From: an uncultured Bacillota bacterium
GTDB lineage: Bacteria > Bacillota > Clostridia > Peptostreptococcales > Anaerovoracaceae
Length of the DNA: 64,000 nt
Assembly: GCA_949292945.1 (NCBI GenBank)
Contig: CASFAX010000003.1
Coordinates: forward strand, 37,554 to 101,553
Direction of reading: 5' to 3'
The notes beneath the pieces are model-generated. The model saw only the letters and a list, made by a program, of their open reading frames with translations. It was not told where the DNA came from and did not search any database. The position numbers and the translations under genes were made by a program. Below, one piece after another: positions 13,744 to 39,213 of this stretch (positions are counted from its first letter, which is position 1; the number at the start of each line of letters is the position of its first letter).

Positions 13744-13781
13744 TGGAAATTGTATTTAAAGCCGCCGGAATGCGCAGGAAA

Positions 13782-21255: not shown

Positions 21256-21284
21256 TTGACAACTATCTGATTCAATGATAAAAG
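21256..21284 (+). promoter_or_regulatory. candidate promoter for riboswitch 1
   Basis: TTGACA (21256-21261), a 17-nt spacer, then a weak -10 TAAAAG. Confidence 0.35.
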
Positions 21285-21319
21285 TATTGTTGTGATACAT
21301 TTTGAAAACTTAACAGGAA

Positions 21320-21592
21320 AACAGTAGGTGCTGCATTGAAAAATGCAGGTAAAAGGGAAACAGGTTTAAAGCCTGTGCGATCTCGTCACTGTATTCAGCA
21401 GTGTATCGCCAATTATGTCACTGAGAAATCGGGAAGGCGGCGGTATGCGTTACGCTGTGAGCCAGGAAACCTGCCTGCTGTGGTACGGGAATTTGTTGAA
21501 TTCCAGATTACGAGGTTTGATCGTACCGAAACTTATATTTTTTTTATTCGATTTCGACGATCCAGCTGCGTTATGCAAGTTGGATTTTTTCT
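21320..21592 (+). promoter_or_regulatory. cobalamin riboswitch 1 with terminator expression platform
   Basis: TAAAAGGGAAACAGGTTTAAAGCCTGTGC..CACTGT core, GTCACTG..GGGAAGGC, and B12 box GAGCCAGGAAACCTGCC. P1 pairs CAGTAGG with CCTGCTG. Terminator ATCCAGC/GTTGGAT plus T6 at 21560-21592. Confidence 0.85.
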
Positions 21593-21652
21593 TTTCCGTA
21601 TTCCTTAATAGGTTTTCTTGTCAAATGCTTAAGAAAAGGAGAGGTAAAGAAA

Positions 21653-22825
21653 ATGAAAAAGAAACTTGTAGCCCTGCTGTGCATATCTGCCATGGTTTTT
21701 GCCCTCGCAGCGTGCGGAAACAACAGCGAATCAGATGACTCCGGCGATGTGAATGCCGATCAGGCTGCGGCAGATCACGTAGCCGAGCTTATCGACGCTA
21801 TCTACGCTCAGGAAAGAACCGATGAAACAGACGCTCAGTGTGAAGAGGCAAAGAAGGCTTGGGATGCTCTCACCGATGCGCAGAAAGAGCTGGTTGAGGG
21901 AGAAAACGCAAGCCCTGATTATTTCGGACTCGATACAGGCGACGCTTCCAAGGACGATCCGAGAAATCAGGACGATATAGGTGAGAACGAAATTCTCGTT
22001 GTAAGCTTCGGTACTTCCTACAACGACAGCAGAGTTGAAGACATCAAGAGTATAGAGGACGCCATAGCAGAGGCGAATCCGGACTGGTCCGTAAGAAGGG
22101 CGTTCACGTCTCAGATCATCATCAACCATATTCAGGCTCGCGACGGAGAAGCGATAGACAACATGGATCAGGCTCTTGAAAGAGCTGTGGATAACGGTGT
22201 AAAGAATCTGGTAGTTCAGCCAACCCACCTTATGCACGGCGCTGAGTACGACGAGATGGTAGAAGCGGTCGAAAAATATCAGGATAACTTCGATTCCGTT
22301 AAGATTGCAGAGCCTCTCCTTGGAGACGTAGGTTCTGACGCTACAGTTATCAACGCAGATAAGAAGGCTGTAGCGGAAGCCGTTACTGCCGCAGCAGTGA
22401 GTGATGCGGGCTTTGATAGCCTGAAGGCGGCTAAGGAAGCAAAGACTGCTTTCGTATTCCTGGGACACGGAACTTCCCACACCGCTAAGGTTTCCTACAG
22501 CCAGATGCAGACTCAGATGGAAGAGCTGGGATATGAAAACGTATACATCGGAACTGTAGAGGGTAAGCCTGAAGAAACCGCATGTGAAGCTGTAATAGAA
22601 AAGGTTAAGAAAGCAGGATACACAAACGTTGTTCTTCGTCCGCTTATGGTAGTTGCAGGCGACCACGCTAATAACGATATGGCAGGAGCTGAGGATGATT
22701 CCTGGAAGTCCATGTTTGAAGCAGACGGTTCATTTGAGAAGGTAGAGGCTCAGATTACGGGTCTCGGTGCGGTTAAGGCAATACAGGATATTTATGTTTC
22801 TCACACGGCTGCCGTAATCGGCTAA
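21653..22825 (+). CDS. exported CbiK-like (class II chelatase fold) lipoprotein
   Basis: Signal peptide with lipobox LAAC (MKKKLVALLCISAMVFALAAC), an acidic/helical N-region of about 100 aa, then the CbiK layout (ILVVSFGTSY, VVQPTHLMHG, FLGHGTSH, RPLMVVAGDHANND). Confidence 0.75.
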   Translation: MKKKLVALLCISAMVFALAACGNNSESDDSGDVNADQAAADHVAELIDAIYAQERTDETDAQCEEAKKAWDALTDAQKELVEGENASPDYFGLDTGDASKDDPRNQDDIGENEILVVSFGTSYNDSRVEDIKSIEDAIAEANPDWSVRRAFTSQIIINHIQARDGEAIDNMDQALERAVDNGVKNLVVQPTHLMHGAEYDEMVEAVEKYQDNFDSVKIAEPLLGDVGSDATVINADKKAVAEAVTAAAVSDAGFDSLKAAKEAKTAFVFLGHGTSHTAKVSYSQMQTQMEELGYENVYIGTVEGKPEETACEAVIEKVKKAGYTNVVLRPLMVVAGDHANNDMAGAEDDSWKSMFEADGSFEKVEAQITGLGAVKAIQDIYVSHTAAVIG

Positions 22826-22870: not shown

Positions 22871-23389
22871 ATGAAAAGAAAAATTGCACTATTGCTCATA
22901 AGCGTATTTTGTCTGGCGACGGTTTTCGCAGGATGCTCAGGTAATGACAGCTCGGAAAGCGCATCTTCCGGAAGTGAAACCCAGAGCGAACAGCCTGCGG
23001 AAAGGGAAGAGGTTTCTTTAGAGGACGGTACTTATACTGCTGATTTTAATACCGACAGCGGGATGTTTCACGTTAACGAGGCGTGCGACGGAAAGGGTAC
23101 CCTTACGGTTAAGGATGGAGAGATGACCATTCATGTCTCTCTCGTATCTAAGAATATAGTAAATCTCTATCCGGGACTTGCAGAGGACGCCCAGAAGGAA
23201 GGGGCTGAGCTTCTTCAGCCTACCACCGACACGGTAACCTACAGCGATGGAATTTCTGAGGAGGTTTACGGCTTCGACATTCCCGTGCCTGCACTTGACG
23301 AGGAATTTGACCTCGCTCTCATAGGGACAAAGGGTGCGTGGTACGACCACAAGGTAAGCGTATCAAATCCTGAAAAGGCAGAGGAGTAG
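22871..23389 (+). CDS. secreted lipoprotein with one copy of the DGTY..GxM..IPVxALD..WY domain, function unknown
   Basis: Lipobox FAGC and an S/E-rich linker. The domain is at nt 23024-23365. Confidence 0.7.
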   Translation: MKRKIALLLISVFCLATVFAGCSGNDSSESASSGSETQSEQPAEREEVSLEDGTYTADFNTDSGMFHVNEACDGKGTLTVKDGEMTIHVSLVSKNIVNLYPGLAEDAQKEGAELLQPTTDTVTYSDGISEEVYGFDIPVPALDEEFDLALIGTKGAWYDHKVSVSNPEKAEE

Positions 23390-23497: not shown

Positions 23498-23525
23498 TTG
23501 ACAAAACTCGTCTAAATGATATGAT
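23498..23525 (+). promoter_or_regulatory. sigma-A promoter for riboswitch 2 and the long btu-cbi operon
   Basis: TTGACA (23498-23503), a 16-nt spacer, and an extended -10 TGaTATGAT (TATGAT at 23520-23525). Confidence 0.5.
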
Positions 23526-23544: not shown

Positions 23545-23842
23545 CATGAAACTGAATCATCTCGGAAGCCGGTGCAAATCCGGCGCTGTGTCTCAGCAAC
23601 CGTGATGTCCTTATGTCGGAAAAGTGAAGTGCTATACGCTTCGGTCACTGAAGCCTTTGGCTTTGGGAAGGCATTTTTTCGAATCTCGGACTAAGCCGGT
23701 AGACCTGATTTAAGTTTAAAGCGAGTCTTCTGAGATAAGATGTGCGATTTGTTTTATGATGTTTTCCGGTTTCGTATCGGCGTAGCGGGGAAACGTGATT
23801 AAGCGATTTACAGGCATCTCGAAGGTCGGGATGTCTTTTTAT
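23545..23842 (+). promoter_or_regulatory. cobalamin riboswitch 2 with terminator expression platform
   Basis: GGAAGCCGGTGCAAATCCGGCGCTGT..CAGCAACCGTGA core, GGTCACTG..GGGAAGGC, and B12-box variant AAGCCGGTAGACCTGAT. Terminator AGGCATC/GATGTCT plus a T-run at 23812-23842. Confidence 0.8.
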
Positions 23843-23891
23843 TTCTTACTTTGCGGACTTTATGTCTGTGGAATTGATTAAGGAGGAAGTT

Positions 23892-24932
23892 ATGAAGAAA
23901 TTGACGAAGACTTTACTGGCTGCGGCAGTGGTTATGGCTATGGTCATGTCCATGGCGGTTACAGTTTTTGCAGGCACTGCTCTCGCCGACGGCACCTACG
24001 ATTATACCGTTGAAACGGGAGAGAAGATGTTTAAGGTAATAGACGCTGACGTTATCGTAAAGGACGGACAGATGACGGCTAAGCTGCTTCTCAGCGGAAC
24101 CAGCTACTACGCTCTGGTACCGGGAACCATAGATGAAGCAAAGGCTGATTATGAAGCGGGAGATGAAAGCGGCTGGTATAAGTCAGAGGGGACAAAAGAA
24201 TACACGGCAAACGGAGAGACTAAGACAGGCGCTATTTACACCATTCCTGTTGAGTCTTTGGATAAGCCTATAGAGCTGGTTTCTGTTTCCAGGAAATATT
24301 ATGACGCCAAGGACACTGAAAAAATGTTCTACGCCAGAACCCTTACCTTTACCGAAAAGGTAGAGGAACCTGCTGCGGAGCCTGCCGTTAAGGACGGAAC
24401 CTATAAGATAAACGTCGAAACGGGAAACAAGATGTTTAAGGTAGTGGACGCTGTTCTCACCGTAAAGGACGGACAGATGACTGCAGTGGTTACTTTAAGC
24501 GGGACGGGATACGGATACCTCTATGCAGGTAAGGTAAACGCAGATAATACCGATACACTGGACACCGTTGCGGCTGCTGACAGAATTGCACCTTGCGCTA
24601 CGGTTAAGGGCGATGACGGCGGAGACCAGTATAGCTACGAGATCCCTGTAGCGGCTCTGGATACGGCTCTGGACTTCGGAGCATTCTCAAATAATAAGCA
24701 GGTATGGTATGCGAGAACTCTTACATTTGATTCGGCTTCCCTTACAGCTGTAACGGATGGAAACGATGCAGCAAAAGGCGATACCGATGCCAATGCATCT
24801 GCGGCTACCGAGGAAAAGGAGGCTGAAAAAGCTCCTAAGACAGGGGATGAGACAGACCTTATCCTCTATGCGGGCATAGCAATAGTAGCGATGCTAACGC
24901 TTGCTGCAATTTACAGAAAGCACAATGCGTAA
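23892..24932 (+). CDS. cell-wall-anchored surface protein with two tandem copies of the DGTY..IPVxALD domain
   Basis: AGGAGG lies 6 nt upstream of ATG 23892 (the track ORF starts at 23862). Signal peptide. Copies at nt 23988-24353 and 24393-24731. C-terminal APKTGD, hydrophobic stretch and YRKHNA resemble a sortase sorting signal. Confidence 0.75.
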   Translation: MKKLTKTLLAAAVVMAMVMSMAVTVFAGTALADGTYDYTVETGEKMFKVIDADVIVKDGQMTAKLLLSGTSYYALVPGTIDEAKADYEAGDESGWYKSEGTKEYTANGETKTGAIYTIPVESLDKPIELVSVSRKYYDAKDTEKMFYARTLTFTEKVEEPAAEPAVKDGTYKINVETGNKMFKVVDAVLTVKDGQMTAVVTLSGTGYGYLYAGKVNADNTDTLDTVAAADRIAPCATVKGDDGGDQYSYEIPVAALDTALDFGAFSNNKQVWYARTLTFDSASLTAVTDGNDAAKGDTDANASAATEEKEAEKAPKTGDETDLILYAGIAIVAMLTLAAIYRKHNA

Positions 24933-24966
24933 AAAGCGAGGATACTTTCAGGAGATTATTTAAAGC

Positions 24967-26085
24967 ATGAAGAAAATTATACCAGCAATATTAGCGGTAC
25001 TTATGATTTTCAGCTCGACGGCGGCAGTTTATGCCGCTGCTCCTGCTGACGGAACCTATTCGGTAGCTACCACCCTTCAGGGAGGCTCGGGAAGGACATC
25101 TATTAAGTCTCCGTCCACCCTTACAGTATCAGGCGGTAAGATGCAGGCTACCGTTGTGTTTAACAGCACTAGTTTTACCTGGATGAAGGTCAACGGAGTT
25201 ACATACAATAATTCCAACTCAGGTGGAAATTCCACATTCACCATTCCTGTATCGGCTCTGGACACGGGGATTTCGGTCAGCGCCGAAACCGTGGCAATGA
25301 GCGAGCCTCACGTAATAGATTACGTTCTGACTTTTAGCTCGGCAGGGGTCACCATGCAGGGACAGGATCCAGGCTCGAATAATTCCGGTTCTTCATCTCA
25401 AGGCGGTCAGACGAGTTCAGGATCTGATACTTCGACAGATTCGGGAAAGGGCGCAGTGGATAGCGATGCTGACAGCGACGCGGAAGACAAAGATACTGAA
25501 AAGGAAGTAGTGGTAGATGATTCAGACGCCATTGAAATAAATAACACCATGAGCAATTTCACCAGCGTAAGCGAGGATATGCTTTCGGACAGCGACGGAA
25601 AGACCATGAGTCTTGAGACGGCCCTCGGAAGAGTGGATTTTGATGAGGACGCCACTGCTGCCATAGCAAAGGCTGCAAAGGGCGGTATAACCCTTGCCAT
25701 GTCCGACGTGACGGCAGACTTTGAGGACAGAGGATATGCCATTGCCGTTTCCATATCCCTTGAGGACGGAGAAGGAAACGATCTTGCTGAGGCCGCATCG
25801 ATGGGAAATATCACCGTTACGCTGAATCTCGATGAGGACATGGAAATAGAAAATTCCCTCGTTGTTTACGCTCTTGACGGCGAAGAAGAAAGTCAGATAG
25901 AGGCTGATGTGGATGCTGACAGTCGGGCTGTAACCTTTGATGCGAGCACACTCGGAACTTTTGCCGTGGATAACGGGGCGGCGATGGGAAGCGCTACCGT
26001 GTACGTGGCCATAGGAATAGTCATCGCGGCGACAGTAATCGGGGGAATTGCGTATTTTGTCGTAAGAGGTAAGAAGAAAAAATGA
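24967..26085 (+). CDS. membrane-anchored surface protein with one copy of the DGTY..IPVxALD domain plus an acidic linker and second domain
   Basis: Signal peptide. Domain at nt 25048-25338, S/G/D-rich linker, second beta-rich region, C-terminal TM helix and KKKK. The stop overlaps the btuF start (ATGA). Confidence 0.7.
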   Translation: MKKIIPAILAVLMIFSSTAAVYAAAPADGTYSVATTLQGGSGRTSIKSPSTLTVSGGKMQATVVFNSTSFTWMKVNGVTYNNSNSGGNSTFTIPVSALDTGISVSAETVAMSEPHVIDYVLTFSSAGVTMQGQDPGSNNSGSSSQGGQTSSGSDTSTDSGKGAVDSDADSDAEDKDTEKEVVVDDSDAIEINNTMSNFTSVSEDMLSDSDGKTMSLETALGRVDFDEDATAAIAKAAKGGITLAMSDVTADFEDRGYAIAVSISLEDGEGNDLAEAASMGNITVTLNLDEDMEIENSLVVYALDGEEESQIEADVDADSRAVTFDASTLGTFAVDNGAAMGSATVYVAIGIVIAATVIGGIAYFVVRGKKKK

Positions 26086-27233
26086 TTCTTAAAAAAATAA
26101 CGGCGGCAGCCTTAAGCCTTACCATGATTCTTTCCCTGTTCACAGGGTGCGGCGGCAGGAATTCTGGGAAAGAGGAAATTCCCCAGGTGGGTGATTTAAC
26201 ATATGAAAGCACTGTAGATCTTGAGTATGCGACCCAGTTTAAGATATATAAGTACGAAGGCGGATATTCGTATATAGAAATAACGGACGGCGACAAGATC
26301 CTCGTAGTGCCCGAAGGAGCGGATACTCCTGAGGACATTGAAGATGATGTAATCGTCGTAAATCAGCCTCTTGAAAACGTCTACATGGCTGCTACATCGG
26401 CAATGTCGCTGGCGAACGCGGCGGAAGCCCTTGATCAGATTAAGTTTTCATCTCTGGAGGCGGACGGCTGGTACGTAGAGGACGCTTCGAAGGCGATGAA
26501 CGAGGGGAAGATAGACTTTGCGGGAAAGTACAGCGCTCCCGATTATGAAATACTGGTGGGAGATGACTGCGACCTCGCCATAGAGTCCACCATGATACTT
26601 CACACTCCCGAGGTCAAGGAAAAGCTGGAGGAGCTGGGCATTCCCGTGATGATAGAAAGATCCAGCTACGAAAGCCACCCTCTTGGACGGACCGAATGGG
26701 TAAAGCTCTACGGAGCGCTGTTCGGCAAGGAGAAGGAAGCGGAGAAGGCTTTTGAGGAACAGGTGTCGGTAATGGACGACCTTAAGGGTCTGAAAAACAC
26801 CGGAAAGACCGTTGCGTTCTTCTATGTAAATTCCGCAGGTGGAGTGGTCACGAGAAAGTCAAGCGACTACATCGCCACCATGATAGAAATAGCAGGCGGA
26901 AAGTACATATTCGAAAATCTTGGAGATGACGAGAACAGAAACTCCACCGTGAATATGCAGATGGAGGAGTTCTACGCTTCCGCAAAGGACGCTGATTTTA
27001 TCTTCTACAACAGCAGCATAGTGTCGGGAATAGACACCTTAGACGATTTTATCGACCTCAATCCTGTTCTTGAAGACTTTAAGGCGGTCAAGGAAGGAAA
27101 CGTGTGGTGCACGGGAAAGAACATGTACCAGGAGACCGATAAGCTGGGTGGCGTCATCAGGGATATGAACGAGATTATAACCAAGGGCGACGACTGCCCT
27201 GACACACTGGATTTCTTCTATAAGGTTAAATAA
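26082..27233 (+). CDS. btuF: ABC-transporter substrate-binding lipoprotein, BtuF/FecB (cluster A) type
   Basis: Lipobox FTGC. Periplasmic-binding-protein type 2 layout. Position is upstream of a FecCD permease and under a B12 riboswitch. Confidence 0.8.
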   Translation: MILKKITAAALSLTMILSLFTGCGGRNSGKEEIPQVGDLTYESTVDLEYATQFKIYKYEGGYSYIEITDGDKILVVPEGADTPEDIEDDVIVVNQPLENVYMAATSAMSLANAAEALDQIKFSSLEADGWYVEDASKAMNEGKIDFAGKYSAPDYEILVGDDCDLAIESTMILHTPEVKEKLEELGIPVMIERSSYESHPLGRTEWVKLYGALFGKEKEAEKAFEEQVSVMDDLKGLKNTGKTVAFFYVNSAGGVVTRKSSDYIATMIEIAGGKYIFENLGDDENRNSTVNMQMEEFYASAKDADFIFYNSSIVSGIDTLDDFIDLNPVLEDFKAVKEGNVWCTGKNMYQETDKLGGVIRDMNEIITKGDDCPDTLDFFYKVK

Positions 27234-27235
27234 AT

Positions 27236-28297
27236 ATGTCAGACATAACAGAAAGACTTGCAGATGAAGAAAATGAAATAAAGTCGGCGAAGCTTAAGCG
27301 ATATGCCAGATATAACACAGTGTTCGTTTTTCTGGCTGTCGCCTTCGTGGTTATCACCGTTTTGAACATCAATTCGGGAAGCGTTGGTATAAGCGTCAAG
27401 GAGATAGCGCGGATAATTTTTCTCCGCGAAGGAGACGAGACGGCTTACGACATAATATGGAAGATAAGGCTTCCCAGAATAGTCACCTCTGCTATCCTGG
27501 GCGGCGGTCTTGCCCTTTCCGGATTTCTCATACAGGTGTTCTTCGGAAACCCTATCGCATCTCCGTTTACATTGGGTATATCCTCAGGTTCAAAGCTGAT
27601 AGTGTCTCTCACCATGGTAGTGATGATACAGTATGTGGATTACATATCGTCCTTTGCCATGGTAGCAGCTGCCTTTTTCGGGGCACTGGTTTGCATGGGC
27701 TTCGTACTTCTGGCGTCGCGAAGGGTGAAGCAGCAGTCCACCCTTCTCATAGCGGGTATAATGATAGGATATATATGCTCTGCCGTGACAGACTTCGTTA
27801 TCACCTTTGCCGAAGATACGGATATAGTAAACCTTCATAACTGGTCCATGGGAAGCTTTTCGGGCATAGACTGGGACGACGTATGGATGTGCTTTGTCAT
27901 CATATTTGCAGCCTTTGTCTGCACCTTTCTTCTTGCAAAGCCTATAGGGGCTTACCAGATGGGTGAGGCGTATGCTCAGAGCATGGGAGTAAACATAAAG
28001 CGGTTCAGAGTGCTGGTAATACTGCTTTCCAGCCTTATGGCAGGTTGCGTAACAGCCTTTGCGGGACCCATTTCCTTCGTTGGAATAGCCGTACCCCACC
28101 TTGCAAAGCTCATGCTTAAGACAAGCAAGCCCATAGTCGTTATTCCTGCCGTATTCTTGGGAGGCGGCGTATTTTGCATGTTCTGCGACTATATAGCCAG
28201 GACGGCTTTCGCGCCGACGGAGCTTTCCATAAGTACGGTGACTGCCATATTCGGTTCGCCTATAGTAATCTGGATGCTTCTTTCGAGAAAGCGGTAA
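27236..28297 (+). CDS. btuC: FecCD-family ABC permease (corrinoid import)
   Basis: 353-aa polytopic protein with RLPRIVTSAILGGGLALSG and GPISFVGIAVPHLAK motifs. Confidence 0.85.
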   Translation: MSDITERLADEENEIKSAKLKRYARYNTVFVFLAVAFVVITVLNINSGSVGISVKEIARIIFLREGDETAYDIIWKIRLPRIVTSAILGGGLALSGFLIQVFFGNPIASPFTLGISSGSKLIVSLTMVVMIQYVDYISSFAMVAAAFFGALVCMGFVLLASRRVKQQSTLLIAGIMIGYICSAVTDFVITFAEDTDIVNLHNWSMGSFSGIDWDDVWMCFVIIFAAFVCTFLLAKPIGAYQMGEAYAQSMGVNIKRFRVLVILLSSLMAGCVTAFAGPISFVGIAVPHLAKLMLKTSKPIVVIPAVFLGGGVFCMFCDYIARTAFAPTELSISTVTAIFGSPIVIWMLLSRKR

Positions 28298-28301
28298 TGA
28301 C

Positions 28302-29414
28302 ATGAACGATATTTTCTTCAATACGAGAGACCTGGCTGTGGGATATAAGGGTCAGGTTCTCATAAGAGACATAGACATAAGCATAAAGAAAGGTGAAATC
28401 CTGACGCTGATAGGACCAAACGGTTCAGGAAAGTCCACCATTTTGAAGAGTATCACGAAGCATCTTGAAGCCATTAAGGGGGATACCTTTATAACCGACG
28501 CCAGCGTATCCCGAATGACTTTTAAAGAGCTTTCAAAGCTTGTGGCGGTGGTTTTAACGGACAGGCTGAAGCCTGAACTGATGACCTGCCGCGACGTGGT
28601 GGCTACGGGACGGTATCCTTACACAGGAAGTCTGGGAATCCTTTCTGACGACGATGAGAAAAAGGTCACCGAGGTTATGAAGCGGGTTCACACGGAAGAC
28701 CTTGCGGAAAAGGACTTTACCGCCGTAAGCGACGGGCAGAAGCAGAGAATACTCCTTGCGAGGGCGATATGCCAGGAACCTGAGGTCATAGTTCTGGACG
28801 AGCCTACGTCCTTTCTCGATATAAAGCACAAGCTTGAGCTTTTAAATATCCTGAGGGAGATGGCAAAGGAGAAGAACATAACCGTAATAATGTCTCTTCA
28901 TGAAATAGATCTGGCGCAAAAGATTTCCGATAAGGTTATGTGCGTTTCGGGAGAGGTGATAAAGAACTTCGGAACTCCCGATGAGATATTTAAAGCAGAT
29001 ATTATAAGAGACCTCTACGATATTACGGACGGAGTATACAACATCGAGTTCGGAAGCGTTGAGCTTCCCGCGTCAAAGGGCGAGCCTGATGTGTTCGTGA
29101 TTTCCTCTTGCGGTAAGGGAATAAACCTTTTCAGGCAGCTTCAAAAGGACGATTTATCTTTTTATGCTGGGATTATCTATACAAACGATATAGACTACGT
29201 TGTGGCAAAATCCCTCGCTTCGGAGGTGTTTTCGGAAAAGCCTTTTATGCCAATATCGGATGAGGTTTACGAGAAAGCCGTAAGAGCCATGAAAAATTGC
29301 AGCCGCATTATAAATGCGGGAGTTGAGATCGGAGAGTGCAACAGAAGGCTTGCCGATTTGATACGGATTGCCGAGAAAAGCGGAAAACTTGAAAATGCCG
29401 GAGATAAAATATGA
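28302..29414 (+). CDS. btuD: ABC ATPase (BtuD/FecE type) with an extra C-terminal domain of about 115 aa
   Basis: Walker A GPNGSGKST, signature VSDGQKQR and Walker B VIVLDEPTS, plus an additional domain from aa 256 (nt 29067) onward. Confidence 0.85.
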   Translation: MNDIFFNTRDLAVGYKGQVLIRDIDISIKKGEILTLIGPNGSGKSTILKSITKHLEAIKGDTFITDASVSRMTFKELSKLVAVVLTDRLKPELMTCRDVVATGRYPYTGSLGILSDDDEKKVTEVMKRVHTEDLAEKDFTAVSDGQKQRILLARAICQEPEVIVLDEPTSFLDIKHKLELLNILREMAKEKNITVIMSLHEIDLAQKISDKVMCVSGEVIKNFGTPDEIFKADIIRDLYDITDGVYNIEFGSVELPASKGEPDVFVISSCGKGINLFRQLQKDDLSFYAGIIYTNDIDYVVAKSLASEVFSEKPFMPISDEVYEKAVRAMKNCSRIINAGVEIGECNRRLADLIRIAEKSGKLENAGDKI

Positions 29415-30559
29415 CCGAAAAGGATTATGTGATAAAAAATGCCGAAAAATTAAGGTGCGGATATACTACGGGAAGCTGCGCCGCGGCTGCTGCCGCGGCT
29501 TCCGCGGAAATGGCGCTGACAGGCAAAAAATCATGGGGGGCGAGGATAAGGCTCCCACGCGGTGAAGAAGTGCTTTTTACTGTAAACAATCAGGAGATTT
29601 CGCAGGTGTCTGCACGGTGCTCCGTGACTAAGGACGGTGGGGACGATCCTGACGTGACAAGCGGTCTTGAGATATTTGCAGATGTAAAGCTTTCAGAAGA
29701 TAACAGGTTTTGTCGCGAAGCCGAAATCATCGTAGACGGAGGTGAGGGCGTTGGCAGAGTGACAAAGGCGGGGCTTAGAGTGCCCGTAGGCAAAGCCGCC
29801 ATAAATCCGGTTCCTCTTAAGATGATAGAAAAAAGCGTGTCGAATGTGCTGGAAAAGCACGGATTCAAGGGAAGCGCCGAGGTGATAATATCAGTACCGA
29901 AAGGCGCGGAAACGGCTCTTAAAACCTTTAATCACAGGCTAGGAATAGAAGGCGGCATTTCAATTCTTGGAACTACGGGGGTGGTGGAACCTATGAGCGA
30001 AAAAGCGCTGGTGGACACCATAAGGACGGAGATAGATTTTCATAAGGCGGCGGACAGGGAGAAAATCCTCATAACGCCGGGAAATTTCGGAAGTGATTTC
30101 ATAAGAGAGTATATGGGAATAGACATTACGAAAGCCGTTCAGTGCTCTAACTACATAGGGGAGACGTTGGATTATATAAGGTATTCGGGACTTAAGAAGA
30201 TACTTTTAGTGGGTCATACAGGCAAGCTCATAAAGCTTGCCGCAGGGATAATGAACACCCACTCGTCCTATGCGGACGGTCGCATGGAGGTCATAGCAAC
30301 TCACGCTGCCATGGCAGGGGCGGACAGGAAAGAAGTTTGCAGGATAATGAACTGCATTACCACAGATGAAGCAATGGATGTTATAAGAGGTGAAAGCTTT
30401 TACGGGCATGTGAAGAAATCCATCATGGAAAAGGCTTTGGATCATCTCAATTTCAGGCTGAAAAATCAGTGCAGGATAGAGACGATAATGTTTACATCGG
30501 ACAGAAGCCATATCATGAAAAGCGACGGGGCAGATAAGCTTGCAGAGGAATTCATGTAG
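29411..30559 (+). CDS. cbiD: cobalt-precorrin-5B C1-methyltransferase
   Basis: LRCGYTTGSCAAAAAAAS and GTTGVVEPMS motifs. ATGA overlap with the btuD stop. Confidence 0.9.
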   Translation: MTEKDYVIKNAEKLRCGYTTGSCAAAAAAASAEMALTGKKSWGARIRLPRGEEVLFTVNNQEISQVSARCSVTKDGGDDPDVTSGLEIFADVKLSEDNRFCREAEIIVDGGEGVGRVTKAGLRVPVGKAAINPVPLKMIEKSVSNVLEKHGFKGSAEVIISVPKGAETALKTFNHRLGIEGGISILGTTGVVEPMSEKALVDTIRTEIDFHKAADREKILITPGNFGSDFIREYMGIDITKAVQCSNYIGETLDYIRYSGLKKILLVGHTGKLIKLAAGIMNTHSSYADGRMEVIATHAAMAGADRKEVCRIMNCITTDEAMDVIRGESFYGHVKKSIMEKALDHLNFRLKNQCRIETIMFTSDRSHIMKSDGADKLAEEFM

Positions 30560-30568
30560 GAGGACATT

Positions 30569-31252
30569 TTGGAAAGAGGAAAATTTTACGCCGTTGGAAC
30601 GGGACCGGGAAATCCTGAACTTCTGACGCTTAAGGCGGTCAGGGTGATGAATGAGTGCCCGGTAATCGCAGCCGCCGAAAGTCGCGGAACGGAGAATATC
30701 GCCCTTAAAACGGCGTCAGAATATATAAAGGGTAAGGAGATAATCATGTGCGACATGCCCATGACAAGAGATGAGAGAGAGCTTGACAGGGTTCACGATG
30801 AAACTGCAGTGAGGATGGCGGGGATTCTGGATTCGGGAAAGAATATAGCATTTCTGACTCTGGGGGATCCTGCCGTATACAGCAGCGTCATGTACGTGTT
30901 TGAGAGGATAAGGAAGATGGGATATGAAGCTGAGATGATACCGGGGATTACTTCATTTTCCGCGGCAGCGGCGGCTTTAAAGGAAGCTTTGTGCGAAAGA
31001 GCGGAGCCCCTTCACATAATCCCTGCATCCTATAAAGGCGAGGAATTTGACGACCTTTGCGGAACAAAAATATACATGAAGTCGGGTAAAAGACTCTCAG
31101 CCCTGAGGGAAAGGCTGCGGGGCAGAGGCGCTGTGATGGTGGAAAATGCTTCCATGGAAAACGAGAGAGTATATAACAGCTTTGATGAGGCAGAAGGCAG
31201 TCACGGATATTTTTCTCTGGTGATATTGCCTGCCGAAGGAGGTAGCAAATAG
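30569..31252 (+). CDS. cbiL: cobalt-precorrin-2 C20-methyltransferase
   Basis: YAVGTGPGNPELLTLKAV and LTLGDPAVYSS. Length and gene order fit CbiL. TTG start as in the ORF track. Confidence 0.82.
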   Translation: MERGKFYAVGTGPGNPELLTLKAVRVMNECPVIAAAESRGTENIALKTASEYIKGKEIIMCDMPMTRDERELDRVHDETAVRMAGILDSGKNIAFLTLGDPAVYSSVMYVFERIRKMGYEAEMIPGITSFSAAAAALKEALCERAEPLHIIPASYKGEEFDDLCGTKIYMKSGKRLSALRERLRGRGAVMVENASMENERVYNSFDEAEGSHGYFSLVILPAEGGSK

Positions 31253-32002
31253 ATGGTATATTTCATAGGAGCGGGTCCGGGTGCTGCGGATCTCATAACG
31301 GTAAGAGGGGCTGAACTTTTAAAGAGGGCTGACGTTATCATATATACAGGTTCCCTTGTGAACCCTCAGCTTCTGGACTACGCAAAAGAATCATGCAAAA
31401 TATATAACAGCGCGTCCATGACCCTGGAAGAAGTAATCGATGTGATGAAGGAAAACCGAGGCAGAGAAGTGGTGAGACTTCATACGGGAGACCCTTGCAT
31501 ATACGGAGCCATAAGAGAGCAGATGGACGTTCTCGATGAGCTTAATATAGAATACACTTCCGTTCCCGGGGTAAGCTCCTTTATCGGAGCAGCCGCGGCT
31601 TTAAATGCCGAGTTCACCCTGCCAGATGTGAGCCAGACGGTTATCCTGACGAGAATGGCAGGAAGAACGCCTGTGCCTGAAAAGGAAGAAATATCAAAGC
31701 TTGCAGCCCATGGGGCCACCATGGTCATATTTCTGACCTCCACCATGCTCTACGAGCTTTCGGAAAGGCTCATAGCGGGAGGATATGCTCCAGATTCTCC
31801 TGCTGCCATAGTCTACAAGGCTACATGGCCTGACGAAAAGGTTATAAGGACGACGGTGGAAAACATCGGCAAAGCAGCTGAAGAAAATGGAATAAACAAG
31901 ATGGCTCTCATAATGGTGGGAGGCTTCCTCGGGACAAAATACGAACGCTCAAAGCTCTACGATCCGGCATTCACTCACCTTTTCAGAGAGGCGTCTAAGT
32001 GA
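31253..32002 (+). CDS. cbiF: cobalt-precorrin-4 C11-methyltransferase
   Basis: VYFIGAGPGAADLITVRG and HTGDPCIYGA. 249 aa. Confidence 0.88.
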   Translation: MVYFIGAGPGAADLITVRGAELLKRADVIIYTGSLVNPQLLDYAKESCKIYNSASMTLEEVIDVMKENRGREVVRLHTGDPCIYGAIREQMDVLDELNIEYTSVPGVSSFIGAAAALNAEFTLPDVSQTVILTRMAGRTPVPEKEEISKLAAHGATMVIFLTSTMLYELSERLIAGGYAPDSPAAIVYKATWPDEKVIRTTVENIGKAAEENGINKMALIMVGGFLGTKYERSKLYDPAFTHLFREASK

Positions 32003-33033
32003 TGAAATATCGCAGAGCAGCTGTAATTGCATACACAGACAATGCCATGGCCCTGGGAGAAAAAGCGGCTGTTTTTTTCAGGCTCTCTGGATTTCAGGCT
32101 GAGGTGATCGACGGAAGAAAGACGAAGGTCTCTCTCGAAATGGAAAGGCTTTTCTCAAAGTGTGAAGCCATACTCTTTGTTTCGGCTGCGGGTATTGCCG
32201 TGAGGATGATAGCGCCGCATATAAAGGCCAAGGATAAGGACCCTGCCGTAATAGTAATGGATGAGGGCGGAAATTTCGTCATATCTCTCCTTTCGGGCCA
32301 CCTTGGCGGCGCTAACGAAATAGCGACCGCTATCGGAAGCGCTTTCGGAGCCGAGCCTGTAATCACCACGGCAACTGACGTCAGCGGAAGGTTCGCGGTG
32401 GATGTGTGGACGAAGAAGGCGGGCTGCGTCATAGAAAATGTTGGAGCGATAAAGTACATATCAGCCGCCGTTCTTAAAGGTGAGAAGGTGTGCTTTCATT
32501 CAGACTTTGACGTTAAAGGGCGCTTACCCGAAGAGCTTACGGAAGAACCTGCGGGAGATACCGGAATATCGGTAAGCCTTTGGGGAAAGGAAAAACCTTT
32601 TAAGGAAACCCTGAATGCAGTTCCCCGCGTAGTCTCCGTGGGAGCGGGGTGCAGGCGGGATACTGATCCCGCAAGGTTTAAAGAGTTCATCTTAAAAAAC
32701 CTTGAAGATAACAGGATTTCCGTAAAGACTTTAGAGAGCATTTCCTCCATAGAGCTTAAAAAGGACGAGACTTGCATGAAGGAGTTTGCCCATGAGTTTG
32801 ATATTCCTTTCAAAACTTATACGGCAGAGGAGCTTAACGGAGCGGGAAGAGAGGATTCGGCAGGCTACGCGTTCGGTTCATCAGACTTCGTGAAAAAAAC
32901 GGTCGGAACGGATAACGTGTGCGAGAAAAGCGCATTCCTGTCTTCGGGACGCGGCAAGATCATACTCAAAAAGACAGGCCATGACGGAATGACGGTTTCC
33001 CTCGCGCTGAGGGACTGGAAGTGCGAGTTTTAA
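31999..33033 (+). CDS. cbiG: cobalt-precorrin-5A hydrolase
   Basis: Two-part CbiG layout: SAAGIAVRMIAP in the N-terminal half and VSVGAGCRRDT in the C-terminal half. It overlaps the cbiF stop. Confidence 0.85.
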   Translation: MMKYRRAAVIAYTDNAMALGEKAAVFFRLSGFQAEVIDGRKTKVSLEMERLFSKCEAILFVSAAGIAVRMIAPHIKAKDKDPAVIVMDEGGNFVISLLSGHLGGANEIATAIGSAFGAEPVITTATDVSGRFAVDVWTKKAGCVIENVGAIKYISAAVLKGEKVCFHSDFDVKGRLPEELTEEPAGDTGISVSLWGKEKPFKETLNAVPRVVSVGAGCRRDTDPARFKEFILKNLEDNRISVKTLESISSIELKKDETCMKEFAHEFDIPFKTYTAEELNGAGREDSAGYAFGSSDFVKKTVGTDNVCEKSAFLSSGRGKIILKKTGHDGMTVSLALRDWKCEF

Positions 33034-33088
33034 GCCTTTGTCCCGTGCATGTTGAATATATGAAAAAAGCGAAAGAGAGCAGAGAAAT

Positions 33089-33820
33089 ATGAAAATTTAC
33101 GTAGTCGGCATAGGTCCCGGCGGAGAGGGGTACATAACTCCTGTCGCAAGGGAAGCCATAGAAAAAAGCGATGTGGTGGTAGGCTACACCGTATACGTCG
33201 ACTTGATAAAAAATCTTACAGGAGATAAAGAAACAAAAACCACCGCCATGAAGCAGGAGGTGGAAAGATGCCGCATGGCTTTAGAGGAGTGTCTAAAGGG
33301 AAAAGATGTGGCGTTCGTGTGCAGCGGAGATGCGGGAGTCTACGGCATGGCGGGAATAATGTGCGAGGTGGCTGAAGACTATCCTGATGTAGATATAGAA
33401 GTAATCCCCGGAATTACTGCGGCGTGCAGCGGAGGAGCGGTTTTGGGCGCTCCGCTGATTCACGATTTTGCCGTAATCTCGTTAAGCGATCTTCTCACGC
33501 CCTGGGAGATGATTGAAAAGAGAATTTCTCTGGCGGCGGAGGGGGATTTCGTAATATGCCTTTACAACCCTAAGAGCAAAAAGAGAGTGACACACCTTGA
33601 CAGAGCGGTAGAACTCATAGAAAAGCACAGAGCGGGCGATACCCCTTGCGGATATGTGAAAAACATCGGGCGTGACGGAGAAACCGGCGTCATATGCACC
33701 TTGAAAGAGCTTTCCGGTAATGACGACATAGACATGTTCACCACGGTTTTCATAGGGAACTCGTCCACTAAGGTGATAAACGGAAAACTGGTTACGCCGA
33801 GGGGATATAAAGGTGTGTAG
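33089..33820 (+). CDS. cbiH: cobalt-precorrin-3B C17-methyltransferase
   Basis: IYVVGIGPGG and SGDAGVYGMAG. 243 aa. Confidence 0.88.
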   Translation: MKIYVVGIGPGGEGYITPVAREAIEKSDVVVGYTVYVDLIKNLTGDKETKTTAMKQEVERCRMALEECLKGKDVAFVCSGDAGVYGMAGIMCEVAEDYPDVDIEVIPGITAACSGGAVLGAPLIHDFAVISLSDLLTPWEMIEKRISLAAEGDFVICLYNPKSKKRVTHLDRAVELIEKHRAGDTPCGYVKNIGRDGETGVICTLKELSGNDDIDMFTTVFIGNSSTKVINGKLVTPRGYKGV

Positions 33821-33824
33821 ACTC

Positions 33825-34616
33825 ATGGATTTTGGGAAATACGGAAAAAGGGCTGCGGTATTTGCGGGAACCTCTGAGGGCAGAGCCATCGGGGAGTTCG
33901 TCCTTGAAAAGGGACTTTCGGCGAAGGTGGACTTTCTCGTAGCTACCGGGTACGGTCAGGAAATATTGGAAGAAGAAGGAAGCCTCATGGTCTTTTCGGG
34001 GAGGCTCAATGAAGGCGAGATGGAAGATTTCTTTTCACACCGCCGGATTTCTCTGGTAATAGACGCCACTCACCCCTACGCCACAGCAGTAACGGAAAAC
34101 ATAAAAGCCGCCTGCAGCAGGGCGGGAATCGAATGCGTACGGGTCACAAGAGGCGGTGATGAAGTTTTTGAAGGCAAAGGCGCCGAGAACATAACCTTCG
34201 TTAACAGCGTGGAAGAAGCTGCGCGGGCGGTAAGCGAGCTGGGGCTTAAGACCCTCGTTACCACCGGCTCTAAGGAGATTGCATCCTTTGGCGAGGTGAA
34301 AAATGCGTCTGAAATTGTAGTCGCAAGAGTGCTTCCGAGCGTAGACTCCATAAACGCCTGTTTAAAGGCGGGGATCATGCCGAAAAACATAATCGGAATG
34401 CAGGGACCCTTTACACTGGAGATGAACCTTGCCACGTTAAGGCAGTACGGCTGCGGAGCCCTCGTCACCAAGGAGACGGGAAAAGCGGGAGGCTTTGCAG
34501 ACAAAGCGGAGTGCGCGAAGCTTGGATATAATGTTATCGTAGTGAGAAAACCTGAGGGAGAGACGGGAGTTTCCCTGAAAGAAGCAAAGAATAAGCTTTG
34601 GGAAGAAATGAAATGA
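33825..34616 (+). CDS. cbiJ: cobalt-precorrin-6A reductase
   Basis: AVFAGTSEGR, IDATHPYA and KETGKAGG. GTG 33813 (the track start) is an alternative start. Confidence 0.85.
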   Translation: MDFGKYGKRAAVFAGTSEGRAIGEFVLEKGLSAKVDFLVATGYGQEILEEEGSLMVFSGRLNEGEMEDFFSHRRISLVIDATHPYATAVTENIKAACSRAGIECVRVTRGGDEVFEGKGAENITFVNSVEEAARAVSELGLKTLVTTGSKEIASFGEVKNASEIVVARVLPSVDSINACLKAGIMPKNIIGMQGPFTLEMNLATLRQYGCGALVTKETGKAGGFADKAECAKLGYNVIVVRKPEGETGVSLKEAKNKLWEEMK

Positions 34617-35821
34617 TGAAGATTACAGTGGCAGGTGCAGGATGCGGCAGTAAAATGCTTTACACGGAGGAGTTTAAGGATGCTATAAGGAAGGCGGATT
34701 TAGTCCTGACATCTCTTAAAGACATTTCAGAGCTGATCCTGTTAAACGAAAACGTGAAAACTGTGTCCGTGACGGACACCATAGAATACATAAGAGAAAA
34801 CGAGGACAGAAACGTAAATCTCTGCGTGTGTGCTTCGGGAGATACGGGCTTTTACAGCATAGCAAGGATAATAAAGAAAAGCGTCAAGGGCACGGGGGAG
34901 TTAACTTTCCTTCCCGCCGTAGGGAGCCTTTCGTATTTCTGCGCAAAAATAGGCATGGGCTACGAGAATATGAAGCTTGTGAGCCTTCACGGACGGGATA
35001 AGTCCATAGTCCCTTACGTCTGCTATAACGAGTACGTGTTCGCCCTGACAGGCGGAAAAGTTAAAGTGCAGGACCTGGCGGTTCAGCTCGTACGGGCAGG
35101 TTTTGGAGATGAGCTTACTCTTTACATTGGGGAGAATCTCAGCCTTGACGGGGAGAGAATCGTTACCGGAACTCCCGGGGAAATCGCCTCTATGGAATTT
35201 TCAGACCTTGCCGTAGTTGTAATACATAATCCGAATTACGTAAATCGACACAGGACGCTCAGAGATTCCGATTTTCTCAGGGCCAAAGTGCCTATGACAA
35301 AGGAAGCAGTCAGAACCCTTGCTGTCTCTGAGCTTGACATCGTGCCGGAGGATGTGGTGTGGGACATAGGGGCGGGAACAGGATCGGTTACGTGTGCTCT
35401 CTGCTATAAGGCTTGTGAAAGCACCGTCTACGCCCTTGAAAAAAATCCTTACGCCTGTGAACTCATAGAAAAAAATGCAGCTCACACCGGAGCGAGAAAC
35501 GTGAAGGTCGCCTGCGGGACGGCCCCTGATGATTTAGCCGGTTTTCCAAGCCCCGACAAGGTCTTCATAGGCGGAAGCAGCGGACGGATGGATGAAATAT
35601 TAGATTTGATATTAAAGGCTAATCCGAAGGCGGTAATCTGCGCTACGGCCGTTACCCTTGAAAGCCTTGACGCCATACTGAAGGGGTTTAAGGAAAGAGG
35701 CATGGATTATACGGTAAAGTGCGTAAACGTAAGCGCTGCTGAAAAGCTGGGATCATATCACCTGATGAGAGCCGAAAACCCGGTTTACATTCTGAAAGGA
35801 AGCTTTACAGGAAATGAGTAG
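34613..35821 (+). CDS. cbiET: fused CbiE/CbiT precorrin-6Y C5,15-methyltransferase (decarboxylating)
   Basis: An N-terminal tetrapyrrole-methylase half joined to a SAM-MT half with VWDIGAGTGSV. ATG 34613 overlaps the cbiJ stop (ATGA). The track ORF starts at TTG 34598. Confidence 0.85.
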   Translation: MMKITVAGAGCGSKMLYTEEFKDAIRKADLVLTSLKDISELILLNENVKTVSVTDTIEYIRENEDRNVNLCVCASGDTGFYSIARIIKKSVKGTGELTFLPAVGSLSYFCAKIGMGYENMKLVSLHGRDKSIVPYVCYNEYVFALTGGKVKVQDLAVQLVRAGFGDELTLYIGENLSLDGERIVTGTPGEIASMEFSDLAVVVIHNPNYVNRHRTLRDSDFLRAKVPMTKEAVRTLAVSELDIVPEDVVWDIGAGTGSVTCALCYKACESTVYALEKNPYACELIEKNAAHTGARNVKVACGTAPDDLAGFPSPDKVFIGGSSGRMDEILDLILKANPKAVICATAVTLESLDAILKGFKERGMDYTVKCVNVSAAEKLGSYHLMRAENPVYILKGSFTGNE

Positions 35822-38149: not shown

Positions 38150-38160
38150 AGGATTTTTTG

Positions 38161-39213
38161 ATGAAGGAAGTACACGGCGGAAATATATATAAATACGAAA
38201 GAAAAATGCACGACTTTTCGGCGAACCTGAACCCTCTGGGAATGCCGGAAGAGGTGAAGGAGGCCATTATAGGAAACATCTGCGCATACGAAGCTTATCC
38301 CGATACGGAAAACAGGGAGCTTACGGCCGCAGTATCCGGGGCCTCCGGCGTACCAGGAGACTTTCTTGCCTTCGGAAACGGGGCAGCCGACCTCATATTT
38401 AGGCTTTCCCTTTACCTTAAGCCTGAAAAGACTTTGATAATTTCGCCTACCTTCGCGGAATACGAAGAGGCGGCAAAGGCTGCAGGATCTGAAATTTCAC
38501 GCTATTTTCTCACCGAAGAGACGGGATTCAGATACGATGAAGGAGCGGAAGAAGCCGTTACAGACGGCACGAACCTGGTATTCATCTGCAATCCCAACAA
38601 TCCGACCGGAATACCTGTTGAAAAGGAGAAAATGCGGTCTCTGGCCTCAAGGTGCAGGGAAAAGGGAGCGGTTCTCGTCATAGACGAGTGTTTTTCCGAT
38701 TTTCTCGAGGAAGAGGAAAGGTATTCATTTCTGCCATTCATAGATGATTTCAAAAATGTTGTAATCCTGAAGGCCTTTACGAAGATTTTCGCCATGGCAG
38801 GTCTCAGACTGGGGTATGCGATATGCAGCGACGGGAAGCTCATAGAGGGAATAAAAGGAACGCTTCAGCCATGGGCGGTAAATACGCCTGCGTCAAAGGC
38901 GGGAGCCGCGGCAGCGGGACTTTCAGACTTTGTCAGAAAGACGAAGGATTACGTGAAAGGAGAGAGGGAGTACCTTATTTCAGCCTTTGAAAATCTGGGA
39001 TTGAAACCTTACGGCTCAAAGGCCAACTACGTGCTCGTAAAAAGCGGCGTCGACCTTAAGAAGGAACTTGAAGGCTTTGACATTATGGTGAGAAGCTGCG
39101 GAAATTACCCGGGACTTGACAATTCCTATTTCAGATTCGCAGTGAGAACTCGCAAAGAAAACGAATATCTGATAGAATGTCTTAAGAACATTTTCAGAAA
39201 GGAAAGACTATGA
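38161..39213 (+). CDS. cobD: threonine-phosphate decarboxylase (aminotransferase class I/II fold)
   Basis: HGGNIY start, NPNNPTG, and [14 protein letters not shown] with the PLP lysine. ATG 38161 was preferred over the track start 38098. Confidence 0.85.

Follow-up and report, generated by a model that had tools for sequence, protein, structure and literature searches.

We analyzed a 64,000-nucleotide (nt) stretch of genomic DNA from an uncultured bacterium of the Bacillota (contig CASFAX010000003.1; referred to below as the window) and focused on a gene that follows a cobalamin riboswitch and encodes a predicted lipoprotein of 390 amino acids (aa) with the fold of the chelatase CbiK. Behind it lie the gene of a second lipoprotein of 172 aa (lp172), a second cobalamin riboswitch, the genes of two NEAT-like surface proteins, an ATP-binding cassette (ABC) importer of the FecCD type and a long cbi operon, all on the same strand (Table 1). 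An earlier reading of the window, made from the letters alone and called here the original prediction, had singled out the first gene as that of an exported CbiK-fold protein. A covariance-model search (cmscan) matched the DNA upstream of the gene to the whole of RF00174 (102.6 bits against a gathering score of 31.5; E = 1.5e-24; model positions 1-189). This bears out the riboswitch of the original prediction, the aptamer beginning 11 nt before the start given there, and the 390-aa open reading frame was likewise found behind it. The intrinsic terminator proposed between the two is weaker than claimed. A hairpin followed by a U-run does exist, with a free energy of -13 kcal/mol by RNAfold and a z-score of -2.9 relative to shuffled sequences, but a simple terminator scan did not flag it, and we regard its role as an intrinsic terminator as plausible. 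The possible promoter of this first unit also went unflagged, in a consensus promoter scan; the last base of its -10 hexamer is a G.

We next considered the protein itself. As criteria for a lipoprotein we used a positively charged n-region, a hydrophobic core and a lipobox of the form [LVI][ASTVI][GAS]C within approximately the first 35 residues. By this rule-based reading, the N terminus consists of MKKK, a hydrophobic core of 16 residues (mean Kyte-Doolittle value, 2.7) and the lipobox L-A-A-C with Cys21, in good agreement with the signal peptide and lipobox that had been proposed. At least 90% of the sequences in an alignment of 56 homologues have Cys21, and lipoboxes were present in 23 further genomes of the same family. 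An internal start giving a cytoplasmic isoform was considered and rejected: before residue 171, the only in-frame candidates are Met14, which sits within the signal peptide, and GTG33, which lacks a Shine-Dalgarno sequence and is located in the non-conserved linker.

The signal peptide is followed by the acidic helical region that the original prediction had described. Residues 22 to 112 contain 27 aspartate and glutamate residues versus 6 lysine and arginine residues and are partly helical in the AlphaFold2 (AF2) model, where helices 30-50 and 57-71 reach predicted local distance difference test (pLDDT) values of 80 to 88. Searches of Pfam and of the Protein Data Bank (PDB) with these residues returned no match even at E ≤ 10. 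The helical module within this region harbors many invariant columns, including Cys63, Trp70 and a stretch similar to DTGDASKDD, its conservation is at least equal to that of the enzyme domain, and it occurs in lipoprotein and Sec-type exported CbiKs alike. It might serve for docking to a carrier or binding protein, or for gathering metal.

The remainder of the protein is a complete chelatase domain, as predicted. Residues 114 to 389 matched PF06180 with 251.1 bits (E = 1.5e-74; gathering score, 26.2), and the AF2 model (pLDDT 79.5) showed the two-lobed alpha/beta chelatase fold, with Foldseek template modeling (TM) scores of 0.86 to 1qgo, 0.85 to 2xvz and 0.80 to 9b86. The closest PDB sequences were FetB (9b86; top match, 2.4e-37), Salmonella CbiK (1qgo) and Desulfovibrio vulgaris CbiK(P) (2xvx). 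The metal-binding and catalytic residues His145 (GHG), Glu175 (TVEG) and His207 (GDHA), in Salmonella numbering, are all present, and together with their surrounding motifs they were invariant in 36 of 36 exported relatives. SFGTS and GDHANNDMA, the motifs of CbiK that face the tetrapyrrole, were conserved as strongly as the metal ligands. Two histidine motifs had been highlighted in the original prediction. That of GHG is indeed catalytic and invariant, whereas the histidine of PTHLMHG is not catalytic and was kept in just 26 of the 36 exported relatives. The protein scored 195.6 bits with the NCBIfam equivalog of the biosynthetic CbiK (NF047852), below its cut-off of 400. Named database records label it "sirohydrochlorin cobaltochelatase," a label that conceals the difference from the cytoplasmic CbiK.

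Several thousand homologues were found in databases, the named ones belonging to Lachnospiraceae. All of the best 120 share a lipobox-type N terminus, a variable linker, the helical module and the CbiK domain, and in some of them the lp172 domain is fused at the C terminus; such fusions measure 518 to 715 aa. Reading 39 CbiK loci in genomes of the same family, we distinguished four architectures (examples in Table 1), namely, lipoproteins with the helical module, lipoproteins with a short linker, tandem double-CbiK lipoproteins and Sec-signal forms in which an N-terminal NEAT-like domain precedes the helical module and CbiK and a basic domain of about 100 aa makes up the C terminus. The latter domain is very basic and FN3-like and may bind the cell wall. 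In a maximum-likelihood tree of 52 sequences, the exported forms, drawn from more than 30 genomes, constituted a single clade (support 99/97) that excludes the family's canonical cytoplasmic CbiK. FetB and CbiK(P) fell outside this exported clade of Lachnospiraceae and grouped with Salmonella CbiK, a tentative placement given the long branches, and export probably arose independently in these two lineages. Judged by the sequences compared, export is a selected trait of the whole lineage, for which differing anchoring solutions are predicted.

We then analyzed the gene order around the exported CbiK in other species. One genome per species was scanned, and the best 80 of 384 relatives' loci were kept, including those of Agathobacter, Roseburia, Coprococcus catus, Faecalicatena contorta, Kineothrix and Blautia. 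Where the flanking DNA sufficed, nearly all loci showed the order exported CbiK, lp172, binding protein, permease, ATPase and cbi genes, the lp172 counterpart having one or two domains or being fused to CbiK. In an Agathobacter genome, the exported CbiK leads a single operon that includes the importer and the remaining pathway, and a short cbiK is absent; in many species, cbiP and cobT lie directly behind the importer. A regular expression for the B12 box detected a riboswitch in 35 of the 80 loci and was superseded by a profile search. Indeed, cmscan found RF00174 just 5' of the exported CbiK in 11 of 11 loci that were negative by the regular expression (86 to 109 bits), and an nhmmer profile derived from these matches detected the riboswitch in 74 of the 80 loci. 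Of the six loci without a match, five have no DNA upstream of the gene and one has the importer genes first; hence, exported CbiK homologues stand behind RF00174 in 74 of the 75 informative species loci.

The partner proteins resemble tetrapyrrole carriers. The domain of lp172 was modeled by AF2 with a pLDDT above 90, and its top ten Foldseek matches were Shp and the NEAT domains of Hbp2 (N2), IsdX1, IsdH and IsdB (probability, 0.99 to 1.0), with TM scores of 0.20 to 0.62 that are normalized to target length and are lowest where the target chain is multi-domain. No Pfam match was found for lp172, and PDB sequence searches with lp172 and with the 356-aa surface protein returned nothing. On the strength of its modeled fold, lp172 is a putative diverged NEAT-like tetrapyrrole carrier. 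The Pfam NEAT profile (PF05031) scored 27.7 and 25.7 bits on the 356-aa and 372-aa surface proteins, respectively, under its gathering score of 32.8, and there were weak matches to IsdC and to LPXTG families. The 383-aa binding protein of the importer carries the lipobox LFTGC, and the only named protein that it resembles, weakly, is IsdE. The genes of the cbi operon are all full length and cover the route from cobalt-sirohydrochlorin onwards.

Since riboswitch 2 has its own strong promoter and a terminator-like hairpin, the exported CbiK and lp172 form a separate two-gene unit, switched apart from the carriers, the importer and the cbi genes. A single riboswitch appears to serve the whole set in most other species. 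Additionally, the ABC ATPase of the locus (28302-29414) measures 370 aa and has an extra C-terminal region, as the ABC_tran match ends near residue 170. The gene of a polytopic membrane protein of the DUF975 family (41303-42055) adjoins the cbi operon at its end, 13 nt past cbiC; the protein has only a weak match to the YciC family.

Table 1. Features of the exported-CbiK locus in the window, with examples of variant architectures from other genomes
Feature	Position	Strand	Remarks
Possible promoter, unit 1	21256..21284	+	TTGACA, 17 nt, TAAAAG; TG two bases 5' of second hexamer; read by eye, tentative
Cobalamin riboswitch aptamer 1	21309..21492	+	RF00174, full length
Expression platform	21559..21597	+	Terminator-like hairpin 21559-21586, then U6CU4
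Shine-Dalgarno sequence AAGGAGAGG	21636..21644	+	8 nt 5' of the ATG at 21653; strong
Exported-CbiK open reading frame	21653-22825	+	390 aa
Lipoprotein signal peptide MKKKLVALLCISAMVFALAA and lipobox Cys21	21653..21715	+	Rule-based reading
Acidic linker and helical/acidic module	21716..21988	+	Residues 22-112; variable linker, then conserved module of about 80 aa
CbiK class II chelatase domain	21989..22825	+	Residues 113-390; intact His/Glu/His site
lp172, second lipoprotein	22871..23389	+	172 aa; lipobox FAGC; putative diverged NEAT-like domain
Promoter, unit 2	23498..23525	+	TTGACA, 16 nt, TATGAT, with TG; 11/12 consensus matches
Cobalamin riboswitch 2	23564..23704	+	Partial RF00174 match, model positions 47-167; 45.3 bits versus gathering score 31.5
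Terminator-like hairpin behind riboswitch 2	23812-23836	+	Followed by a T-run
Two NEAT-like surface proteins	23862..26085	+	356 aa (two domains, PKTG and membrane-anchor tail); 372 aa (C-terminal membrane anchor)
FecCD-type ABC importer	26082..29414	+	383-aa lipoprotein binding protein, permease, ATPase; PF01497, PF01032, PF00005
cbiD, cbiL, cbiF, cbiG, cbiH, cbiJ, cbiET, cbiA, cbiB, cobD, cbiP, cbiC	29411..41289	+	Pfam, near-complete profile coverage
Variant-architecture examples			P0026, P0059; loci L070, L082, L099, L102, L105, L117, L123 and others; G330-G332; G129, G174, G024, G282, G276

To place the exported CbiK in its pathway, we searched the genome, a 2.0-Mb draft in 77 contigs that is 96% complete. 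The lack of a cytoplasmic cbiK or cbiX, which the original prediction had reported for the window, extends to the whole genome, where neither a second CbiK nor a CbiX was found above cut-off. HemB (PF00490) had no match in the genome, and the CobA model (TIGR01469) matched only cbiL, cbiF and cbiH, all below cut-off. Furthermore, tblastn with the genes of relatives recovered nothing for hemA, hemB, hemC, cobA-hemD, sirC and the short cbiK, and the only hemL-like match was a 38%-identical aminotransferase. The genes cobT, cobU and cobS are present on contig C1. A second assembly of the same genus (G166) showed the same truncated pattern. We considered whether the missing hem, cobA and cbiK genes merely lie in an assembly gap; this is unlikely, since the pattern recurs in G166 and in eight other genera at 90 to 99% completeness. 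Because the upstream genes and a cytoplasmic chelatase are absent, CbiL is the first cytoplasmic enzyme of the pathway. In the anaerobic route, the substrate of CbiL is cobalt-sirohydrochlorin.

A survey of the family gave a consistent picture. CbiK was present in 148 of 349 genomes (about 42%). HemB and CobA were both absent from 18 of the 23 genomes that carry only the exported form (sequence-checked) versus none of the 23 that carry only the short cytoplasmic form (Fisher p = 2.4e-8, a statistic that ignores kinship). The 18 genomes represent nine genera, and G166 is among them. CbiD was kept in 34 of 36 sequence-verified exported carriers and in 49 of 50 further carriers, that is, in 83 of 86. 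Such a pattern is unlikely for a general B12-capture device, because the latter would be expected chiefly in auxotrophs, yet CbiD is nearly always kept. CbiX was rejected as the cytoplasmic chelatase, a true CbiX being carried by a single genome (G363) among 80. The short CbiK of one genome (G317) was not recovered in the region examined.

Genomes such as G005 and G107 harbor both forms, with a short cbiK in a cbiL...cbiK-hemA-hemC-cobA/hemD-hemB-hemL-sirC cluster in addition to the exported module. In these clusters (L020 of G107, 11881-16114; L024 of G005, 9151-13350), the genes are arranged as cbiL, an ABC ATPase, an ABC-2 permease, an exported protein of 343 to 380 aa, cbiK and then the hem genes. 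The N-terminal domain of the exported protein resembles the 372-aa NEAT-like protein of the window (40 to 43% identity over 109 aa), and, as predicted from these sequences, the cytoplasmic chelatase of both genomes is likewise accompanied by a transporter, so far undescribed, that has a NEAT-like component. In another genome, G144, which is complete and whose sole CbiK is of the Sec-exported type, a 541-aa protein (L149, 7995-9620) fuses a SirC-like domain (NAD-binding, of the CysG N-terminal type) to HemC; its gene adjoins cobA-hemD and hemB. By analogy, this fusion might chelate as CysG or Met8p do.

Four B12 riboswitches were found in the genome, two of them outside the window. The fourth (92.6 bits) controls the genes of a BtuF-like lipoprotein of 303 aa, a permease and an ATPase (contig C4, 1185-4738 for the whole unit). 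This BtuF-like protein has no similarity by BLAST to its 383-aa counterpart in the cbi locus. Since there is a separate BtuF-like importer with an unrelated binding protein, the cargo of the locus importer would be something other than a finished cobamide: finished cobamides probably have their own importer on contig C4, and the importer of the cbi locus probably carries something else. The third riboswitch (98 bits, full length) heads a region of contig C10 (approximately 44263-56727, minus strand) and lies 5' of the gene of a 687-aa Fe-S flavoenzyme of the old yellow enzyme type, whose best named relatives are the long form of bilirubin reductase and BaiCD (357 bits each, under the cut-offs) and which is thus similar to a tetrapyrrole reductase. 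Behind it are the genes of an Opp/Nik-type ABC transporter and two DppA-like genes; this transporter could import cobalt or another precursor. A regular-expression search of the genome for the N-terminal motif of CbiM gave nothing convincing, which is weak evidence.

Overall, these data agree with the core of the original prediction, a CbiK paralogue outside the cytoplasm that has a tetrapyrrole or cobalt as its target and is made only when B12 is scarce, with location and ligand remaining predictions. The export signal throughout the clade, the riboswitch in nearly all informative loci, the partner of the NEAT fold and the importer of the FecCD type all argue for it. We could narrow the broad range of ligands considered originally. 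The route to sirohydrochlorin and a cytoplasmic chelatase are both absent, and the exported CbiK almost never occurs without the genes of the corrin ring; together, these findings favor an early precursor at the level of sirohydrochlorin as the ligand. We thus hypothesize that the 390-aa protein, predicted to be a class II chelatase that a lipid anchor holds to the outside of the cytoplasmic membrane, provides the entry, at the cell surface, to a pathway that salvages an early B12 precursor of the sirohydrochlorin (factor II) or precorrin-2 level. We give this hypothesis an even chance. That cobalt is also inserted outside the cell is a more tentative proposal. While riboswitch, open reading frame, fold, catalytic triad, synteny, fusions and gene absences were computed and the location was predicted, we infer the ligand, the chelation outside and the order of hand-over.

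The mechanism could operate as follows. At low adenosylcobalamin, riboswitch 1 would permit read-through into the exported CbiK and its NEAT-like partner, and riboswitch 2 would open the remaining genes. The extracellular chelatase would bind sirohydrochlorin that other microbes release and insert Co2+ or, alternatively, capture ready-made cobalt-sirohydrochlorin. The cobalt tetrapyrrole would then be handed from the NEAT-like carriers to the lipoprotein binding protein and from there to the FecCD-type ABC importer. Inside the cell, CbiL and the later cbi enzymes would finish the corrin ring.

Several points weigh against this hypothesis. First, the localization is predicted from a rule-based reading of the lipobox, and the characterized exported homologues are described as haem-binding proteins. 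Second, we know of no direct evidence that the gut or rumen offers extracellular sirohydrochlorin, with or without cobalt, and free Co2+ is probably scarce in these habitats. Third, the association with the loss of HemB and CobA was tested without correction for phylogeny, and the genome under study is itself a 96%-complete draft in 77 contigs, in which a gap may still hide the missing genes. Fourth, six genomes (G133, G134, G141, G143, G144 and G202) have HemB, CobA, CbiD and one CbiK but no CbiX, and in all four of them that were read (G133, G143, G144 and G202) this CbiK is of the exported type. Fifth, two genomes (G316 and G336) lack HemB and CobA and yet have an orphan cytoplasmic CbiK; these bacteria may import a metal-free precursor, with the exported copy only binding it. 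Finally, if the Opp/Nik-type transporter of contig C10 imports cobalt, cobalt would be used in the cytoplasm.

Among the other explanations, the one that survives best is that of a surface receptor. According to it, the exported CbiK and the NEAT-like proteins would catch finished or late corrinoids (cobamides, cobinamide or cobyric acid) for the importer, no chelation would take place, and the His/Glu/His site would merely ligate the cobalt already bound. Much of the locus would fit such a role: a B12 riboswitch lies upstream, a BtuFCD-type importer adjoins, the carrier partner has a NEAT fold, and in many species the late-pathway genes cbiP and cobT stand directly behind the importer. Furthermore, Bacteroides bind B12 through the surface lipoproteins BtuG, BtuH, BtuJ and BtuK (PMC12751083). 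A receptor of this kind, however, should be carried by pure auxotrophs, which is at odds with the presence of CbiD in 83 of the 86 carriers. For late corrinoids, the genomes without hemB and cobA would have no use for the eight intact ring enzymes that they keep, a separate BtuF-like importer with its own riboswitch is already present in this genome, and the triad of the active site is invariant. We therefore consider a pure receptor unlikely.

Alternatively, the protein could be an ordinary biosynthetic chelatase of the cytoplasm, its signal peptide being unused or part of the protein remaining inside, with the precursor arriving by an unrecognized route or importer. Here, the methionine that follows the strong Shine-Dalgarno sequence is that of the signal peptide, and no other in-frame start preceded by such a sequence occurs before the domain. 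Three kinds of export signal, as well as fusions to wall-binding or NEAT domains, are conserved across the clade, the constant neighbors are lipoproteins or surface proteins, and the genomes with both forms hold a separate short cytoplasmic CbiK in the hem cluster. Against these observations stand the facts that the protein is the sole chelatase of a genome whose pathway from cbiL to cbiC is otherwise intact, that in Agathobacter it heads the whole cbi operon at the place where cbiK normally sits, and that the six genomes with full hem and cobA genes mentioned above have one CbiK, of the exported type in the four that were read. Taken together, a cytoplasmic role seems quite improbable.

A third possibility is the capture of cobalt, in which the acidic module and the His/Glu/His site would bind Co2+ at the surface for uptake and no tetrapyrrole would be involved. 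The very acidic residues 22 to 112 with their conserved DTGDASKDD stretch would suit this purpose, as would the lack of a CbiM-type motif in the genome by regular expression, and cobalt transporters are typically under the control of B12 riboswitches (PMC7689651). However, the cargo of importers of the FecCD/Peripla_BP_2 type consists of chelates (for example, haem, siderophores and B12) and not of free ions, the partner has the fold of a tetrapyrrole carrier, SFGTS and GDHANNDMA are conserved equally with the metal ligands, and a candidate cobalt/nickel-type ABC transporter with its own riboswitch is encoded elsewhere. Cobalt capture alone is thus highly improbable. Lastly, that the protein binds haem or strips iron from it, as proposed for IhtB/FetB and CbiK(P), with an incidental link to the B12 genes, is scarcely credible despite the annotation of its top PDB sequence match as "heme-binding protein FetB," the Isd- and Shp-like NEAT folds of its partners and the weak IsdE similarity of the binding protein, since a B12 riboswitch precedes it in 74 of the 75 informative species loci, the module lies within or beside cbi genes, FetB has no dechelatase activity on haemin (PMC13065792) and a shortage of B12 is not relievable by haem.

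Returning to the salvage of an early precursor, we put forward, with some reserve, a broader proposal. Many Lachnospiraceae of the gut and rumen, and by convergence perhaps Collinsella, Ruminococcus, Prevotella-type bacteria and Porphyromonas gingivalis, would perform the first cobalt step of B12 synthesis outside the cell. Sirohydrochlorin from sulfate reducers, methanogens and B12 producers would be a cross-fed public good, metallated at the surface, relayed by NEAT-like proteins and imported as cobalt-sirohydrochlorin. If this is true, the so-called precorrin-2 salvagers are real B12 producers that rely on an early intermediate of a neighbor, predictions of which gut bacteria produce B12 change, and early tetrapyrroles become cross-fed metabolites. 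The carriers of the module include abundant gut bacteria such as Agathobacter, Roseburia, Coprococcus catus and Anaerobutyricum hallii.

Each of the elements described here, that of the exported CbiK paralogue, that of the NEAT relay and that of the precursor-salvager genotype, is already known, and we found in our literature search no paper that, for Gram-positive gut bacteria, joins a truncated pathway to an exported chelatase with a B12 riboswitch and NEAT-like carriers. The protein of the window belongs to the same Pfam family as the CbiK of Salmonella enterica (1qgo, 2xwp) and shares its class II fold (TM score, 0.86) and the residues His145, Glu175 and His207. Unlike the protein of the window, the Salmonella enzyme is cytoplasmic, measures 264 aa and has no signal peptide; the former adds a lipobox and a module of about 90 aa and falls into a separate clade. 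Another counterpart is the CbiK(P) of D. vulgaris (2xvx, 2xvy, 2xvz), an exported paralogue that retains the chelatase site (TM score, 0.85). D. vulgaris also has a separate cytoplasmic CbiK, as do genomes such as G005 and G107. CbiK(P) is, however, a soluble periplasmic protein of a Gram-negative host that is described as haem binding; it lacks the helical N-terminal module and a NEAT partner, and we know of no link between it and a B12 riboswitch.

The relay predicted here resembles those of Isd and Shp/HtsABC, in which a metallo-tetrapyrrole is handed by surface NEAT carriers to a binding protein that is a lipoprotein and to a permease of the FecCD type, and one carrier of the window has a sortase-like PKTG tail. 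It differs in that the Pfam NEAT scores are below gathering, a B12 riboswitch takes the place of Fur and a chelatase is part of the relay. Haem is probably not what it carries. Bacteroides also have surface lipoproteins that are controlled by riboswitches and supply an importer of the B12 family, namely, BtuG, BtuH, BtuJ and BtuK (PMC12751083; PMC6143338). These proteins have unrelated folds (beta-propeller and beta-jelly-roll), bind finished cobamides and are found in auxotrophs. No chelatase homologue is among them, and the words "chelatase" and "CbiK" do not occur in PMC12751083.

A parallel in layout is offered by IhtB of P. gingivalis, identical to FetB (9b86; ihtABCDE locus), a lipoprotein homologue of CbiK and the top PDB sequence match. 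Like the protein of the window, it combines the CbiK fold and an export signal with an adjoining FecCD-type ABC transporter. The gene PGN_0704 of P. gingivalis is presumably ihtA. A riboswitch repressed by B12 lies 5' of PGN_0704, there called "btuB" (PMC3422912). IhtB/FetB adjoins a FecCD-type binding protein, permease and ATPase, and the system does not respond to iron or haem (PMC12094164). In vitro, FetB/IhtB acts as a chelatase for cobalt and for manganese and shows no dechelatase activity (PMC13065792). Moreover, P. gingivalis lacks the synthesis of precorrin-2 and has kept the rest of the corrin pathway, and its cobalamin biosynthesis was called an "enigma" (Roper et al., 2000, as cited in PMC6461909). 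In contrast to the system of the window, that of P. gingivalis operates in a diderm at the surface of the outer membrane, has a TonB-dependent receptor in place of the NEAT proteins, lacks the helical N-terminal module and is read in the literature as a haem/iron or Mn-porphyrin system. It might need to be read anew.

Finally, the genotype of the genome matches that of the precorrin-2 salvagers of Shelton et al. (2019), in which the genes from 5-aminolevulinate (ALA) to precorrin-2 are gone and those for the corrin ring and the nucleotide loop are complete (PMC6461909). That study places many Clostridia in this class (Supplementary Table 10), defines it by gene absence only and verified only the salvage of ALA; neither an uptake route nor an extracytoplasmic chelatase is raised in the sections consulted (PMC6461909). 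Salvagers of this kind keep a costly corrin pathway that they cannot start, with no uptake route or substrate shown for them. Our analysis suggests that the chelatase in such genomes has not been lost but has moved to the surface, under the control of B12 and coupled to tetrapyrrole carriers and an importer.

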